Shown in pieces: positions 18,014 to 57,700 of a DNA stretch of 64,000 bases. The first letter of the stretch is position 1. Every line of letters starts with the position of its first letter. The position numbers and the translations under genes are program-made. Below the pieces are notes generated by a model that did not search any database, was not told the DNA's origin, and saw only the letters and a program-made list of their open reading frames with translations. The DNA comes from Octopus vulgaris (Eukaryota), in assembly GCA_951406725.2 (NCBI GenBank), contig OX597815.1, forward strand, positions 99,820,001 to 99,884,000. Reading direction: 5' to 3'.

Positions 18014-19099
18014 TTGGGTTGGCAACTAAGTTCCCGGCGTTTTTTTTAATTTTTGGAATGTATTGCGTTTTTAAATTTTGGAATCTATTTTTTTAGAGAC
18101 TTTTATTTTTTAATCATTTTGGAACCAATTTTGTTTTGTTTTTTTTCTAGGTAATTTTAGTTCATTTTTGTTTATTTTCAAATCAATAAAATGGAATGTC
18201 AAGTTAAGAAAAACGAGCATTTTCGATACCTCCTTTTTGCTTTCAATCAAGGCTCTAAGGCCGCAAAAGCTGCTCGCGACATCTGTGCTGTGTATGGAGA
18301 GGGTGCCATAGCTGAAAGAACCGCTCGTGATTAGTATGCCAAGATCAAAAATGGAAATTTTGACCTCAAAAACGCATATCGTTCTGGCCGTCCAGTTGAG
18401 TTCGATGAAGAGCGATTAAACCAAGTTTTGCACGAAAATTCTCGTCAAACGAAACGGAAACTGGCAGAGAAAATGGAATGCTCACACTCTGCTATAGAGA
18501 AGCATCTTTACTCGATGGGAAAGTTTCAGAAGTATGGAGCATGGGTTCTGCATGCATTAAGTGACAACAACAAAAATCAACGAGCCACAAACCCCGCTGG
18601 TTTGCTTGCTCGTCAACGTTCATATCATGGACACAAGCAACGATTTCTTTACCGAATTGTTACTGGCGACGAAAATGGTGCCTGTACATCAATACGAAGC
18701 AGCTTAAGTCATGGCTTAGCCCCGGTAAACAAGCGAAACCGCGCGTGAAACAAGATCTTCATCCGCATAACACGATGTTGTGCGTATGGTGGGACTAGGA
18801 AGGGATTATCCATTACGAATTGCTTGAACGAAACCAAACAGTCAACGCGGAACTCTATGTTCATCAGATGAAATGACTCAACACGACTCAACAGAATTGA
18901 GCGCTTGGTTGGATCAATTTTTCGAGACGAAATCGGGTGATTTCTACCAACGAGGTATTGAATATCATGTTGAACGTTGGAAAAAAGTTGTAAACAACAA
19001 GGGCGAATACATTATAGATTAATTAGTTGTTATTTTTTATTAAACCTTTCAAAATATTTTAATTAAAAAAAAACGGTGGGAACTTAGTTGCCAACCCAA
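18014..19099 (+). mobile_element. Mariner transposon (mellifera-subfamily-like), defective, internally deleted
   Basis: TA-flanked TIRs ttgggttggcaactaagttccc / gggaacttagttgccaacccaa; transposase from ATG 18191 (MECQVKKNEHFR...RSGRP...WVLHAL...RIVTGDE) with stops and frameshifts; second D and YSPDLAP region missing. Confidence 0.95.
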
Positions 19100-37131: not shown

Positions 37132-38371
37132 AGGTTTTTCACTCATAATGACAACGAAATGACAGCCGCAGTTTTGACCTCGTGAGCTATCGGCTGGTAA
37201 TTGCGAAACTGTATCCCATCGACCTTTTCCCTCCACATTGCACTACACTAAGCTAACAGTACAATTAATTTTACCAGCCTCTAAAATATTAAAATATATC
37301 ATTTTCTCTGCATCTCCTCGCTATATTCATCTGTCAACATGATTCCATACAACTATTTCCTATAAGACAAACACACCAACATGAACAATAATGTTCTTAT
37401 AATAGATAAGGTATAAGCTTAAGGATATTTAAACTCACCATGTAATCTAATAGTTCTGTGAAATCTACACGGAAGAAAATAGATTTGAAACAGCATACGT
37501 AAATAGTTGTAATGTCAGAGTGCGGAGAAGAACGTGACAAGAAAAACAATAGTGTGAAACTAAACAGCTATAGAATTCCAAAATAATTCCTTCAGTGATA
37601 CAAGCAAGCATGTGATAAATTTTAAGAATTGTAGAGCCATTTCATAAAAGGACTACTGAAAGCAACAGAATAATAAACTACAAATATTCTGTTATTTACA
37701 CCATCGATTCAGCGTCGTATCTAGCTGTCTGTTGTAAACCACGCCAATTGTGTATGTTGTTGCATTTACAGATCAGCTCTATATGAATACACATAGCTTG
37801 GAGCTATGCTATCTGAATGAAACATTCAACTGAGGGTTTCTATATTTGACTGTTCCTATTCTTTATTGTGGGGCATGCTCTCCTAAGGAGTTTGTACTTG
37901 AATTCATGTATCTTTCCTTCAGTTGAAAAATGGTAGGTAGGATGGCTTCTTAGAAAGATTCGATAACTCAGTAAAAACTATAGTAAACCATTTCATATCT
38001 AATGGTATGAAAGTGTTGAGTTCGGTTCCCTCATTGGTATTAGATGAAGGAGAGCAAAACGACAGCTAGATATATCATCCTCTTCTGTGTGATAGTGAGT
38101 AATAAGGTTACCTTATTCAAAAGCATAACAGTACAGTTCGAATAGATGACTATTCTCCTACCGAATCCGGTTAACTGTCCGTGGTCACTCAATTTGAAAG
38201 AAATAGATGGAAAACCTCCAAGAAATTAGATCCTACTGTCTTGAAATGAAATGGAACACATATTGAATAATGTAATCCTAGGAAAAGAGAATGGTTATGG
38301 CTTGAATGCCGTTGTTTATAGACCTCGGTGATCAGGCTGAACAATTACAAATTTTCATATAAATAGCCATT

Positions 38372-38900
38372 CCCTTGGCATAGATACATTGAAGCTCCGA
38401 CGTCTGGCAAACACCCACAAAATTATTAACCATCATGCCAACAATCACCTTGAGCACCATTTTGAGCTGCATGTATGGATGAAAGCATTCCCTTTCCATA
38501 CCATGAATGTTTATTCAAAGAAAAAGACAGCTTTGCATCTGTGTTGTCACAGGTATAGCTGTTGGAATGCAAAGAGCCAGAAAAGAAACTACAAGACATC
38601 CCTACAACGTCAGAAAACAGCACAGCTCCAATGACTTTCAGAAACACTTTTTCATACTCAGAGTTGCTGAAACATGGAACAAACTACCTGCATCAGTCGT
38701 TAGTTGCCGAGACATTGCATTCTTTAAAGCCTCCGTGCTTCCTGAAATTCGCCAACACTACACCTGATATTCCCCACCTCCATACGCATGTACACATCTA
38801 TATCATGACTCATACACTGTTCACTTTCCTGACTTTTGTACATAATTTTATGTACTGCACATGCACCTTTGCTGATTTATGTAACAAAGCACTATACATA
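38372..38900 (+). mobile_element. CR1/L2-group LINE 3' end fragment
   Basis: LGIDTLKLRRLA..HKII and KHFFILRVAETWNKLPASVV....FK, typical of the CR1-like ORF2 C-terminus, followed by 3' UTR. Confidence 0.75.
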
Positions 38901-39725
38901 ATAATTTCATTATATCATATGTTTTAGCTCTTTTCGCATTGAATTCAAATCATGCTAGGTCAACTTTGCTTTCATCCAGTCCGTGGACTATGTTATCCAA
39001 TATGTCATTGATTTAGATTTTAAAACCTGGCCTGAAGATACCTTACTGCTATTTGTAAGAGATCAAACCATCACGTATATACATCCTCATTGACTTATTA
39101 CTTCTTAGTGATCAATTTAGTGTGGAATCCTGCAGAAATCTTCGACCAAGAAGAATTACATTTTGGTTGAGTCGTTGGTGCTACTCATACAAAAAGATTT
39201 AGGAAGTTTGTTTTTATTGGTCCTAAACCGAGAAACAAAAGTAGTTGTTTGATGAAAGTAGTCCATTATTTATATCTCAACAAATACAAGTATTTGAATA
39301 GAGAAAACAGTTTCAGAATATCCCTCTAATCAAAGTTTATCCAAAGATTTAACCTCCGTGCGTTTGTGGAAGGAAGAACTAGTGTTCTACCAATGTTATA
39401 CGTATAGATAGAACCATTAGAAAATGTGTCAAAGTGATCATAGTCCATATGAAGGAAGTGAAGATATCTTTATCGGCACCACGTTGAATATGGCATAACT
39501 GGAGGCAGCAAAGAGAAATAGCGACTTAATGTGCAGTTATCTTTTTGGTGGAACAGTCCAAATCAGGAGTTACCTTGTTATTTTACCATTATCGAATTCC
39601 TATTGTTATCTGGGCGATTTGAAAAATAATACAAAATATTTTGCATAAAAGAGGTGGAAATTCTTGATGTTGAAAAGAATTAATACTAAAGTTACAAACA
39701 TTCGGTGGGGAAAGAATTAAAACAA

Positions 39726-40248
39726 TAGTAATTCCTCGACTATCGCTGGTGTTACGTTCCCAAACCTCCCGCGATTAGTGAAAATCCGCGAAGTAGAAAC
39801 ATTACTGAACTGTATATTTTTTTATTATTTTCATAATTTGTTTATATTTATTTTATTCTAAATGCAAAAGAATAACACACGCTCGCATCCCGAGTTTCAT
39901 TTTCCATACAGTATGTGCAATTATTTGTTTACCCATCTACGGTACACTACGAGCTTTATTTTACTGTATTTAATTAATGTGTTATACGATGCAGTACTGT
40001 AATGTAGTTTTATTTATTAGTTTATTAATCTCTAGGCATGAAAATGCTTATTTTACCCCTCAAATAATTAAAATCTAAAAAAATATAAATACCTATCGAC
40101 CGCAGGGACGCGCGATATTCTGAGGAGTCCGTGATATAAATTTACATGTATTAGCCAGAAAAGTCCACGATGTACTGAAGGCGCGATAGGTGAACCGCGT
40201 TGTAATGAGTGCGAGATAGGTGAACCGCGATATGGCGAGGGCTTACCG
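39726..40248. mobile_element. Tigger/pogo-like MITE
   Basis: Termini tagtaattcctcgactatcgc / ccgcgatatggcgagggcttaccg resemble CAGTA.TCCCTCG pogo-type TIRs; subterminal duplication gataggtgaaccgcg. Confidence 0.7.
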
Positions 40249-40783
40249 CATACGATTGAGACCGCTTGAGTAGTGGACAATACGCTGTACAACAGAAAGA
40301 TATGTGGTTTATGAACGTGATATTTACCTTCTATAATAGTTTCTAATCCAGCATGAGGATATGTTGCCACCTGCACCAATTCCTTCCATTGACCTTTGAA
40401 GATTACTTATTTCTTCCGTCCTTAATTTGAATGAAATGCACACGTGCATCCAAGCATGCATATAGGCAATTAGAACGCATATGTACACATTATTCGATGG
40501 CCACTAACTCCTCAAATTTCATCTGTTCTTTGACAAGTCTTGTTTTTCTTCCTCCAGGTATCCAAAATAACTCTTCCGCTCATCAAGCTTCTTTTAGCTG
40601 CCAATTTAGTCGCAAATGACCTGATCGTTCAACAGACTTTATGAAATCACAGCGCCTCACAAGTAACTTCACACACACACACGTACATATTTATATGCAC
40701 ATACATCCCTGCAACCATATATATATATATATATATATATAGCAATAATAAATCTCTAAACGAGATATAAACAGTAACTGCTC

Positions 40784-41250
40784 TATAACATAAGGGGCAT
40801 TAGCCATCTGAATGTGGCTAGGGACAGGGCAGGGCGGTGGGGGTGTTACTGATGCATTTAGCCCCAGGCGATCATCAACGTCACCAGGAGGGCTGACACC
40901 ATCTCGGTGTTCTCTAGCCTGCAAAGGGAGGTCATTCCCCGAAGAAGCGGATGCTACATACGCATGGTAAGCACCGCTTTCTCCGACGAATAACTCCCTC
41001 TACAAGCTATATTTAAGGGTTTTCATAGTAAACACATTTACTGCGTTGATAATAGGCAAATACCTTGAAACCTGGTCCGTATGTAGCATCCGCTTCTTCG
41101 GGGAATGACCTCCCTTTGCAGGCTAGAGAACACCGAGATGGTTGCAGCCCTCCTGGTGACGTTGATGATCGCATGGGGCTAAATGCATCAGTAACACCCC
41201 CACCGCCCTGCCCTGTCCCTAGCCACATTCAGATGGCTAATGCCCCTATG

Positions 41251-41255
<5 letters not shown>
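40784..41255. mobile_element. Hammerhead-containing element with ~178-bp near-perfect inverted arms (40784-40962 / 41078-41255)
   Basis: Arms are reverse complements with very few differences; GC-rich; right end joins (TA)n. Confidence 0.85.
41042..41081 (+). ncRNA. Type-I hammerhead ribozyme motif, U3-A8 core variant
   Basis: tgcg-TTGATAA-tagg(caaata)cctt-GAAA-cctgg-TC-cgta; GUC triplet at 41075-41077. Confidence 0.65.
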
Positions 41256-41321
<66 letters not shown>

Positions 41322-41664
41322 CACACACACACTCACAAATATATATATATATATATTGATAAAGGTCCAAGGTGTACCTTGTAGTACTCCGGCTAGTACT
41401 ACAGAATTAGCATTTGTATGAGAAACCTATATATGTTTATGCTGTTGTTGTTACTCTCATTACTGTTGTTCACATTTAGAACCGGGTCAAGGGTTGTGGA
41501 TTGGTAAAATCGTTAGGGTGTCGAACAAAGAACATTGTGATATGATTTAGCTCTTCATGCATTAAATTAAAATCATGCTCAGGTGAACTTTACGTTTCAA
41601 CCAATCCGCAGATTATATTATTCAATATACCTTTTATTTAGATTTTAAAACCTGGTCTAAGGAT

Positions 41665-41845
41665 GTTTAACTGCCATTTCTTTGCAGAAAATATTGATCA
41701 CATCTATGACGGTATCTGAGATACAATATCCCCTGAGAATAAGCAACAGTTTGACTTGGTATATTAAATCGAATGCTTTACTGAAGTCTACAATTGAGAT
41801 AGCAGTTATTCTTGATACCTTAAAGCACTCACTACTTATTGCAGC
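41665..41845 (-). mobile_element. RTE-like LINE reverse transcriptase fragment (inverted 5' part)
   Basis: AISIVDFSKAFDLI...LLLILRGYCISDTVIDVINI, the RT motif with DFSKAFD. Confidence 0.75.
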
Positions 41846-41854
41846 ATCAAATAC

Positions 41855-42610
41855 AGTAGAAATAACCACATTTCCAAAAGAAAATCGGATATCATGCTTG
41901 CTTCAACTATAATTACTTATACAAATAATGTAGATGATAGAGCTCTTACCGTTAATACTAATCAAAGAGTTTCAGTTACTACTTGAATGCGTTCAGGAAA
42001 CCTCAAAATACGTTGGACTACACGTCAATGACTATAAGACTGAACATTTGTGGTTTTCAATCGACTGAAAGAACACTTAAATCATAAACAGGTGCAAACT
42101 TGAAATATGTAACCGAAAGATCTAAGGAAAACTGTGAAATAAAAATCAATTCTTATTACACGGCAAGGTCAGAAATTAACATGTGCTCAATATTGGATCC
42201 AAATCTTTCTAATGACCTCTATAATAGTTTTGTAGCGTTGCTGTAGAAACCAAAATTGACTTATGGATCTGAGTCTTAGACACCTACGCAAGTAATAGAA
42301 AGCCGAATAAATGGAAGATATACCAAAATATTGAAGAGGGTGAAGAACGTTTCTAGGGAACAACATTTACTGAAGGGCGCATGATATGGAAATATAGCAT
42401 TACTAATGAACGCCATCAAAGAATACAGAATTGAGTTGATGGGGTACAGTTGGAGAAGAAAAATGATATTTTACGTTATCTGTTATTATGATAACCAGTT
42501 GATATAAGAAAAACAGGCAAAGCATGTCGAACAGCAGATACTGGCATACACAAAGCTTGTTGCAGAGATGAGAGAGAACCGAGAAACCTGGAGAGTACAG
42601 ATCAATGGGA
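41855..42610 (+). mobile_element. RTE-like LINE RT 3' portion, decayed
   Basis: ITYTNNVDDRAL...LLECVQETSKYVGLHVNDYKTE and later YGSES*T (LYGSESWT-like) motifs. Confidence 0.7.
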
Positions 42611-42893
42611 TCCAAGTACACACCGCTTTACACACACACACATATAGACCCAAATGCACATACACATGCGCGCACATGCGCACTTACGAATAGGCGTAGA
42701 CATGGTTATGTGGTTAATAATATATTCTCGTCCAGACAAAGGCTGACCAAGACTTTATGAAGAAATCTGTAGGCGAGAATTTGTGGAAACCTGTTTTTGT
42801 ATATAAGAACGTTAGAGTAAATACCAGATTTTAATATATATATATTATATTATATTATATTATATTATATTATATTATATTATATTATATTTA

Positions 42894-42949
42894 AATTCAT
42901 TGGGCTACTGGCTTATTGGTGCACCAATAAGCCAGTAGCCCAATGAATT
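42894..42949. repeat. Perfect 56-bp spacerless palindrome
   Basis: aattcattgggctactggcttattggtg|caccaataagccagtagcccaatgaatt. Confidence 0.95.
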
Positions 42950-42979
42950 AAGCAAGCAAAAGCATATATGCATAGGTAT

Positions 42980-43162
42980 AGTTTTCTTCTCATCCACATG
43001 GTTCCGGGTTCGGTGCTACTACGTGACACCTTGAACAAGTGTTTTCAATTGTTGTCCGGGTCACCCAAAGAATTCTAAGCGGATTTGGTTAACGGAAACT
43101 GAATTCAAGCGGTCTCATGTATCAGTTTTGTGAGTATGTATGTGAGTGTGCATACGTGTGCA

Positions 43163-43202
<40 letters not shown>

Positions 43203-43410
43203 TGTGTGTGTGAATGTGTATGTGGGTGAAGGGTTGTGTTTCTACCCGGTATTGTTTTATTTACGTCCTCGTAACTTAGCGGTTCGGCAAAATAGACTGC
43301 TAGAATAAGCATCAGGCTTTAGGAAACAAATAAGTAGCGGGGTCGATCCATTCGACTGAAACCTTTCATGGCGGTGCTCGAGCCTCATAGCAGTATATTG
43401 ACCGAAACAA
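42980..43410 (+). mobile_element. tRNA-derived SINE family D with internal (TG)n; its 3' part recurs inverted at 47194-47329, about 1970-2045 and 2610-2660
   Basis: ccacatggttccgggttc...caccttgaacaagtgt head and core; 3' part gcggttcggcaaaatagac...ggcggtgctc.agc shared with the other copies. Confidence 0.75.
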
Positions 43411-43501
43411 AAGATTGAAAAAAAAAACGATATAGATACATCATAAAAAATTGTTAAACTTTCGAGAGAACGTGAATCAAACATCTTTGAAAAATGAGTC
43501 T

Positions 43502-43832
43502 CGAAGCACATAAATATTTATATACTGTCATATAAATGACAGTATGTAAATAGTAGGTTAAAAAAAGCGCCTTTCGGATAGAAAGAGTCGAAGGCGACCC
43601 GTAGGACCCGGACCCACATCGCCTGGAGACATGACAGGGATTCCAGCAATGGACCAAAATAAAGTTTCTAAATTTGATAAATTCGAAAGATTGTTTGGTC
43701 CAATGGCAGAACACCTGTCATTACATGCGATATGCGTTCGAGTCCCATGGGCAGTCGTCGACATTTTCTATCCATTAGGGTTTTTCCACCCAACCCGATA
43801 CTTGCATGCTTAGAACATTTATGAGCTTCAAA
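43502..43832. repeat. Diverged palindromic element built from two outward-facing tRNA-like heads
   Basis: Right arm has A-box TGGTCCAATGG (43696), cctgtca anticodon-like loop and B-box GTTCGAGTC (43736); left arm 43593-43660 is its diverged reverse complement. Confidence 0.6.
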
Positions 43833-44402
43833 TTAATACACATGTATATACATATATATGAGCATTTTTTATATTCACACGCATATCAAATATATATATA
43901 TATGAAGATTAAATACATTTTGAAAACTTGGTACAGTAAAAGAACTGTCAATACAAAAACTAAATATTCTTATATTAAATAAACCTCGCTACTATATTTC
44001 TAACAAAAGCATACGTATGAAGTTATGTGAATAATCCTCGTTTAAGCTATAAGAATTTTTGGCCGGATTCTGAAGATTGCAGAAACACGGATACCATTAG
44101 TGTAATATTTTTTCAAAGGAAACTCTCTCTTTTTTTAAAAAAATTTTATTCCTTTTCTTTTAATTTTTTTTATTTCTTTATTTGCTATCACTTAGATGTC
44201 TGTGTACGTATGTATATGTAAAACAGAAAAAATATCGTATCTGTATATATGTGTGTATGAAATAGAGGAAGAAGAGGGAGAAAGAAAGAGAGAGTTAATG
44301 TTTGTATGTTTCTTTTAAATTTATAATATATAAATTTAATGCATATAAATATAGACTTCATATAATGCATCATTTCTTCAGAAGAGACGTGTGTGTTTAT
44401 GA

Positions 44403-56599: not shown

Positions 56600-57700
56600 A
56601 TATATGAACTCACCATATATGAAGTGCCGCATCCATTTGGATATCCATTTCACATTATATAAGAGAGAACTGGAAAACATACTTGGATGATTGATTTATC
56701 ATTTGGAAAAAGACCATTGATACACTTGTGGAATTTAAATCAATACTGAATAATATAAGCCCTAACATTCAATTTACAACTGAATATAGCAAACACTAGC
56801 TCCCTTTCTTCGATATTATGATAAAAAGAAAGTCAACGGACTCGAAGCAATATCTACTGTTTAGCTCATGCCACCCGAAACATATCAAAAGAATATCCCC
56901 TTTAATTTAGCAAAAAGGATTTCCACAATAGTGTCTGATAGAAATACTTGGGATCTTCGTCTTCAAGACCTCAGAACAACACTAACTGAAAGACTATATC
57001 CACCATCACTTATAGACGTTTGAATTGAGCGTGCTAAGAAATTAGACATTAAAACACTTAGGGCAACAAAACGTAACCACACCTCATCTCAAAACACTAC
57101 TGTATATATCAGCCCACAACCCTAGAAACAATGAGGCATACAACACTATTGTACAAAATCTACCTATGCTCACTAGAGATCGAAAAGTGAACATTCTGCA
57201 AGCACATAAGCACGTCAAATGCAAAAAGCAACATAATTCGCTGAAAAGAGTTCTAACAAATGCGAAGCTTTACATAGCAACCACGAAACCAACGGTTAAA
57301 AATTGTGGACGCTCAAAGTGTGGAGCATGCCCCAACCTACCGGAAGGCTCGGAATTCATATTCAATTAAGAAGAGAGGTTCACAAATAAAACCAACTTCA
57401 CTTATGCTTTCCGAGAATCTAATTTATGTTATAACTTGCTCAGGTTGTGAACATAACTATATAGGACAGACATGTATAACACTGAGACAGAGTACCACAC
57501 TACGTAAGGAACAGATCCGGTTCCCGCAATACAGACAGATTCCTTTGAGTGAACACATCAGAGATGTGCAAGTAATATCCAACCAAACGTCACATTTTCT
57601 CCATCTACCAGTACAAAGAAGCAATTTCTATACAAGAACGTTTAAATAAAGAAAATTTATTCATCGAATAATAGAGAATACATCTAAATATAGGCATAAC
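56600..57700 (+). mobile_element. Penelope-like element pseudogene: RT C-terminal half, Cys-rich linker and GIY-YIG endonuclease (Neptune-like)
   Basis: WKTYLDD*FIIW...LNNISPNIQFTTE...LPFFDI...TDSKQYLLFSSCHPKH...CGRSKCGAC...NLIYVITCSGCEHNYIGQT; stops and frameshifts. Confidence 0.92.

Follow-up and report, generated by a model that had tools for sequence, protein, structure and literature searches.

The element at positions 40741-41255 of the window, by which we mean the whole 64,000-nt stretch of Octopus vulgaris DNA analysed here, is a member of a family of tandem hammerhead repeats. The reading that we favour, with a probability of roughly 0.7, is that two partial copies of this repeat stand head-to-head in a (TA)n tract, where they were likely placed by the reverse transcriptase (RT) of a Penelope-like element (PLE), and that the point at the GUC triplet where the two arms cease to match is a deletion of the hammerhead core, likely left by a skip of the polymerase. 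The segments 40784-40962 and 41078-41255, on opposite strands, are 97.8% identical over 179 columns and differ by three substitutions and one indel, which confirms the 178-bp inverted repeat described in the initial annotation; a read-through transcript could fold into a 178-bp hairpin. GTC occupies 41075-41077, and the identity between the arms does stop right behind it, at 41078/40962, as that annotation had reported, but the left arm does not end at this point and instead runs from 41043 to 40741. Parsed against intact family monomers, numbered such that +1 is the base right after GUC, the minus strand reads from 41043 to 40963, then passes a 34-nt gap in which the core is lost, and then continues from +1 to +222 as 40962 to 40741. 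The apparent 'spacer' at 40963-41043 is the left arm resuming past this 34-nt core deletion; this inner part (minus strand) consists of the 81 nt that in intact monomers lie 5' of the hammerhead and take in the 5' strand of stem I, and it is identical to the family copy L003 at 77 of 81 positions. The outer part of the arm (40741-40962, minus strand) covers monomer positions +1 to +222, the latter being the long 3' end of the family, and matches the same copy at 220 of 222 positions, with its outermost 43 nt (40741-40783, minus strand) forming a 'tail' that is present in the left arm only and equals the long minus the short 3' end. At the deletion junction (40960-40963, minus strand), a CGT microhomology at 40960-40962 allows the 3' edge of the deletion to be placed at any position between +1 and +4, counted from the cut. 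The right arm (41042-41255, plus strand) starts 36 nt upstream of the predicted cut and reaches the short 3' end at +178, and (TA)n target sequence flanks the element on the left (40717-40740) and on the right (41252-41317), where its first bases overlap the TATA end of the element.

The true strand switch is located at 41042/41043 and not at 40962/41078. This head-to-head inversion junction (41042-41043), which carries a 2-nt TG microhomology, lies 36 nt upstream of the predicted cut, and the idea that the inversion breakpoint and the cleavage site are one and the same must be given up. When 40963-41252 was used as a query, other genomic copies carried its first 81 bases on the opposite strand, directly before base 80, and a pile-up of match starts at query base 80 was rejected as an artefact of the locus's own junction. 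Highly improbable, in our view, is the literal form of the original proposal, namely that the left cDNA ended at the ribozyme-made 5' end of the RNA and was joined there in inverted orientation. Identity between the arms does halt at 41078, as this would predict; however, family sequence on the minus strand, in its native order, takes up the 81 nt that follow, so that the left cDNA continues upstream after the core skip and changes strand only at 41042/41043. Elsewhere in the window, two diverged copies (78-85%) of another dispersed repeat lie 2.6 kb apart (38917-39054 and 41540-41679), a near-perfect palindrome of about 65 nt (42889-42953) was picked up via weak miRNA-model matches, and a stop-to-stop frame on the plus strand (18335-18748) may resemble a fragment of a mariner-type transposase.

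The family was characterised in the window's own Octopus vulgaris assembly (2.8 Gb, 227 contigs), where a family 28-mer has 685 exact matches genome-wide, compared with 0 for the control. In four contig sets that were compared, the family is present in each, tandem joints occur, and none of the joints skips the core, a product that contigs would hardly be expected to show. Thirteen distinct natural monomers, measured from cut to cut, are 353-360 bp long (357 bp for the repeat of which this locus has partial copies), and tandem arrays reach six or more units. GC content is 46-51% across the 13 monomers and 46% in the three nearest this locus, the longest ATG frame of each monomer spans 30-104 aa with none conserved, and no ORF with RT and GIY-YIG domains was found within the element. 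A second, related hammerhead repeat family (loci L179-L203, 220 exact matches of a 27-mer) has a canonical CUGAUGA core and a longer stem III, has its tail region in common with the first family, and contains a 119-bp tandem array at L174-L179. Beside one copy of the first family (L062, 1690-1890) stands a SINE-like repeat, which we take to resemble cephalopod short interspersed repeats. Metazoan non-LTR retrozymes have been described as non-coding tandem monomers of 150-450 bp with a GC content below 50% and a type I hammerhead with minimal helix III, the mussel repeats being 350-390 bp long (PMC7229834). Tandem non-coding monomers, each with a type I hammerhead that in our case is predicted, are common to both, whereas the GC content of the octopus family sits at the upper edge of their '<50%', and most of its insertions are head-to-head pairs of partial arms with two fixed 3' ends; the word 'inverted' does not occur in the main text of that study. 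Retrozyme status is assigned here from sequence, with cleavage and circular RNA as predicted features. The locus thus assigned would be a young insertion, head-to-head and of PLE-type anatomy, that belongs to the known class of non-LTR retrozymes, and the initial annotation appears to have named it correctly as a young, hammerhead-bearing retro-insertion of Penelope type with an inverted 5'-truncated copy.

The putative ribozyme at 41042-41081 (plus strand) is a predicted type I hammerhead with a U3:A8 core variant and a cut between 41077 and 41078. It combines the core TTGATAA (41046-41052), a stem II (41053-41066) with a U-U at its base, GAAA (41067-41070), a minimal two-pair stem III, the GUC triplet with CGTA downstream, and a stem I with the 5' strand TGCG that the inversion junction has cut down to about 4 bp. 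In an Rfam scan of 38000-44000, hammerhead families were absent at E<=1 and the matches were confined to miRNA models driven by microsatellites, and the assignment, which otherwise agrees with the earlier one, is therefore based on the motif and on covariation within the family. Among 77 family cores read, in which core, stem II, GAAA, short stem III, GUC and stem I are present, positions 3 and 8 are C3:G8 in 29, U3:A8 in 47 and C3:A8 in 1; the copies being related, this covariation may go back to a single joint change or a few of them, and not to 47 events. In the C3:G8 subfamilies, the core is the canonical CUGACGA, stem II is closed by G-C and helix III is mostly a palindromic ACCGGT; the U-U at the base of stem II, present in the subfamily of this locus, is found in 31 of the 77 cores. 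U3-A8 covariation is known from the PLE hammerheads of Schistosoma, and a short palindromic helix III has been predicted to work as a dimer (PMC4209133); both traits are common to PLE hammerheads and to our family, with the difference that U3-A8 in that report belongs to the Schistosoma PLE motifs, whereas here both core types occur inside one retrozyme family. An axolotl motif with a U-U at the base of helix II reached 22% cleavage as a monomer and cleaved better as a dimer (PMC7229834). Forcing the hammerhead fold on a monomer of the subfamily of this locus gives -2.6 kcal/mol, compared with -11.5 kcal/mol for the minimum-energy fold. Minimum-energy folding of the motif recovers stem I without the active core and was not counted as support. 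Self-cleavage of the family is plausible from its motif, and cleavage in cis at this locus is unlikely because there is a single core with a shortened stem I. At L134/L135 (C1:71.10 Mb), a GUC-to-GUU change is present in both arms of one head-to-head insertion, which suggests one template or source locus for both arms.

The family inserts in the manner of a PLE. Among 95 distinct untargeted insertions, 58 are head-to-head, 37 have a single orientation and 0 are tail-to-tail. Free 3' ends fall into two clusters about 45 nt apart (columns 174-184 and 220-229), and the 58 head-to-head pairs comprise 41 with one long and one short end, 2 with two short ends, 0 with two long ends and 15 with one unclassifiable end, which means that one short end is combined with one long end in 41 of 43 classifiable pairs (binomial P 1e-10). 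Our locus fits this rule, with the long 3' end on the left and the short 3' end on the right. (TA)4 lies within 3 nt of 96 of 136 short or long 3' ends, as a raw count, and microhomology of 1-7 nt is present at 76 of 116 joined junctions. Same-strand jumps within the family number 10 in 46.6 kb, and those at other loci, 12-336 nt in size, look like template switches made at insertion. In a comparison that asked whether the two arms copy the same RNA molecule, the best match of an arm is its partner arm in 17 of 44 pairs and another locus in 22, with a tie in 5. PLE insertions have been reported to show 5' truncation, partial tandems, an adjacent inverted 5'-truncated copy, a tail at one end only and a (TA)n target bias (PMC8557442). 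The inverted 5'-truncated copy, the one-sided tail and the AT-rich target are all present here, and truncation, tandems, inverted copy, one-end tail and (TA)n bias are common to both systems, whereas the octopus family has no ORF and a tail of 43-45 nt, compared with 30-40 nt in the PLEs of that study, and no autonomous partner with a matching pLTR was found for it.

Long inverted arms with TA on both flanks might also be expected of a DNA transposon of the MITE or foldback type whose terminal inverted repeats measure 178 bp and whose target duplication is TA, a TSD not being readable inside (TA)n. Such an origin is scarcely credible, however, as the inner arm ends vary from locus to locus, the outer ends of the pair are unequal, 353-360-bp monomers occur in tandem, 37 of the 95 insertions have a single orientation and the hammerhead core covaries; the initial annotation had already preferred a retro-insertion over a MITE, and its choice stands on the variable inner ends, the unequal outer ends and this covariation.

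A spike of 5' ends at GUC|, as the initial annotation had expected, was looked for in the family in three ways and was not found. Fetched loci were parsed with a two-strand profile aligner; the samples are partial and consist of first-listed and best-scoring matches. Junction rates exclude 11 targeted loci and the insertion counts given above exclude 25 (in both cases loci chosen for breaks near the cut and the window's own), and segments shorter than 30 nt, insertions touching a locus edge and duplicates were also left out. One set of anchor counts, from a sample that had been selected on a single anchor and in which overlaps may appear twice, did not enter the rates. In 102 segments from the first 100 of the 685 matches, 5' junctions occur at 0.40% per nt, and at 0.53% in the 20 columns around the cut; across 166 segments from all untargeted loci, the rate is 0.36% per nt both overall and in those 20 columns, and none of these 166 untargeted segments has a 5' end compatible with +1. 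Genome-wide, an anchor 3' of the cut has 387 matches and reveals 7 breaks in the interval -2..+5, against 5.7-6.9 expected when the partial capture by the anchor pattern is allowed for. Their leftmost placements are -2, +1, +2, +2, +4, +5 and +5, and the one that fits +1 is this locus. Of the 10 matches to a second pattern, 4 are point changes at C17 and the other 6 are junctions at +1..+3, where 3.3-3.6 are expected (P 0.11-0.16), and a small excess of junctions at +2/+3 is possible. Both anchor searches need exact anchors and miss diverged copies.

Loss of the core is a recurrent event in the family. The genome-wide core-loss pattern was found at 4 loci, each deletion starting at the end of the stem I 5' strand. 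Copying resumes at +1..+4 at this locus, at +5..+7 at two others with TG microhomology, and 8 columns upstream of the cut at L132; the two deletions resuming at +5..+7 are likely independent because they are in different subfamilies. A control interval of similar length and geometry and higher copy number had 0 such deletions (Fisher P 0.017 including this locus and 0.048 excluding it, with rough denominators of 387 and 685), an enrichment that, with a single control interval, is suggestive only. CG(T) is found twice, once where the stem I 5' strand ends and once right after the cut, and the simplest reading is that stem I juxtaposes both sides and that the polymerase crosses via a microhomology of 2-3 nt. 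With CG closing both strands, a deletion edge at the cut site is expected from the geometry of stem I alone, and the coincidence with GUC| that had drawn attention to the locus is explained by this double occurrence of CG(T). The right arm runs intact through the cut site, and at least one template was thus uncut there.

Two other accounts of the 34-nt gap deserve consideration. Later loss at the DNA level from a copy inserted intact, by replication slippage or by end-joining that used the CGT repeats at the hairpin foot of stem I, fits this locus as well as an RT skip does: there is a 3-nt direct repeat at the hairpin base, the arms are old enough to have acquired three substitutions and an indel, and long inverted repeats, as found here, are prone to recombination. 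We nevertheless hold it to be doubtful, since the other same-strand jumps of the family resemble template switches made at insertion and the control interval lacks such a deletion despite its higher copy number. Comparably unlikely is a modified version of the cleavage proposal, in which the left cDNA reached the 5' end of a self-cleaved RNA at +1, ran off and jumped to the CGU of the upstream fragment, with stem I keeping that fragment in position; the deletion would then be a record of cleavage in vivo. The 3' edge of the deletion can sit exactly at +1, three of the four core deletions resume downstream of the cut, and the 6 junctions at +1..+3 exceed expectation by the modest margin given above, all of which would agree with such a run-off; yet the L132 deletion, where copying resumes 8 columns upstream of the cut, calls for a template that was uncut, two deletions resume 4-6 nt past the cut, the 5' ends show no spike at +1, and the CG(T) at the base of stem I predicts the observed edge without cleavage. 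Moreover, uncut RNA was the dominant substrate of an anole PLE in vitro, and RNA-seq reads starting or ending at the cut were reported as none for that element (PMC11167929), and the subfamily of our locus has the U-U at the base of stem II that it has in common with the weakly cleaving axolotl monomer (PMC7229834). At this locus, run-off from a cleaved RNA and a skip across a folded, uncut ribozyme yield the same product.

For the favoured reading, a polymerase skip during PLE-type insertion, family membership, the arm coordinates, the two fixed 3' ends, the TA targets and the scattered 5' junctions come directly from the alignments, and the steps that connect them are proposed, the first of them after PLE biochemistry. 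The tail of the anole PLE lies between two internal sites, downstream of the hammerhead, at which its RT starts; on AT-rich DNA, cutting and extension affect both target strands, and hammerhead cleavage is dispensable (PMC11167929). By analogy, a GIY-YIG nuclease would nick both strands of AT-rich DNA and the RT would begin at either of two internal positions of the RNA (PMC11167929), which in our case would be about +178 and about +222. The PLE RT likely primed two cDNAs, one per target strand, and the rule of one short and one long end per pair suggests a different start site for each of them. The two cDNAs would then have been joined at 41042/41043 via the 2-nt microhomology. On the left arm, the polymerase would have passed from +1..+4 to the CGT that ends the stem I 5' strand, which the stem I fold would hold beside the polymerase, the template being a folded or a cut ribozyme, while the right cDNA would have run 36 nt past the cut on a template that was uncut, circular or multimeric at this point. 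Two internal starts that define the tail and the use of both strands are features of anole Poseidon PAc and would be so here; for PAc in vitro, however, start sites were not seen to differ by strand (PMC11167929), whereas the octopus has one site per arm in 41 of 43 pairs of the retrozyme and in 5 of 5 of the PLE. Rather more speculatively, and with a low probability in our estimate, a dimeric PLE RT might use a distinct RNA start for each strand, or even two RNAs, as in the retrozyme-PLE chimera described below, and the core losses, that at this locus included, might be jumps over a ribozyme cut in vivo.

Evidence for a PLE enzyme comes from a physical link. At L106, a retrozyme arm is joined head-to-head with a 5'-truncated ORF that has the RT motif YVDD, a weak match to GIY-YIG (E 0.005, short of the Pfam cut-off) and a CX4CxxC motif 5' of the nuclease, the latter being a feature of the Neptune and Nematis clades (PMC8557442). 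This retrozyme-PLE chimera, with TGC microhomology and (TA)n flanks, is found in three copies on two contigs (L106:1368-3101; L236:4226-7130; L240:4567-7115), and, because the copies have 2.3-2.9 kb of flank in common, it represents one event that was later duplicated. Its PLE arm has the long end and its retrozyme arm, in the unrearranged copies L236 and L240, the short end. The PLE in this chimera belongs to a young family of the genome (L206-L247), whose 40 scored copies are 99-100% identical and whose targets are (TA)n; its 3' repeat contains a minimal hammerhead-like motif with the core CUGAUGC, its 3' ends are of two kinds, about 55 nt apart, and in 5 of 5 head-to-head pairs each arm has a different one. 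It is seemingly active, and none of the 12 stretches taken contained a full-length ORF. Between its terminal repeat and the retrozyme no similarity was detected, with 243-418 of 500 shuffles reaching as high a score, and it is for this reason a candidate driver of the retrozyme rather than a demonstrated parent. The window itself harbours a decayed GIY-YIG-like PLE endonuclease remnant (57278-57649, plus strand) that has no Pfam match and 150 scored relatives, most with stops; it was tried as a route to a cognate autonomous PLE, and 0 of 30 loci were similar to the retrozyme monomer.

Li, Clavereau and Pollet (2026, 10.64898/2026.07.22.740005) concluded from co-occurrence and pLTR phylogeny that retrozymes derive from PLEs and are not autonomous. 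Our data lead to the same conclusion, that PLE enzymes move retrozymes, on evidence that differs in kind, namely insertion anatomy and a physical chimera without pLTR homology, and the main text of that report contains neither 'tail' nor 'junction'. The literature searched, supplements and subscription papers aside, held no count of one end per arm, no such chimera and no skipping of the core. These three parts, the one-start-per-arm count, the retrozyme-PLE chimera and the recurrent core loss, are in our view those worth keeping; the data do not support the proposal of a cleavage fossil at the point of inversion.

Taken as a family, the anatomy of these insertions bears on how animal retrozymes move and on the role of the hammerhead in the Penelope cycle. 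It argues against the cut RNA end as the usual 5' boundary of insertions, and the tail signature, the one start site per arm and the chimera support a mobilisation of retrozymes by PLE enzymes that is independent of homology.
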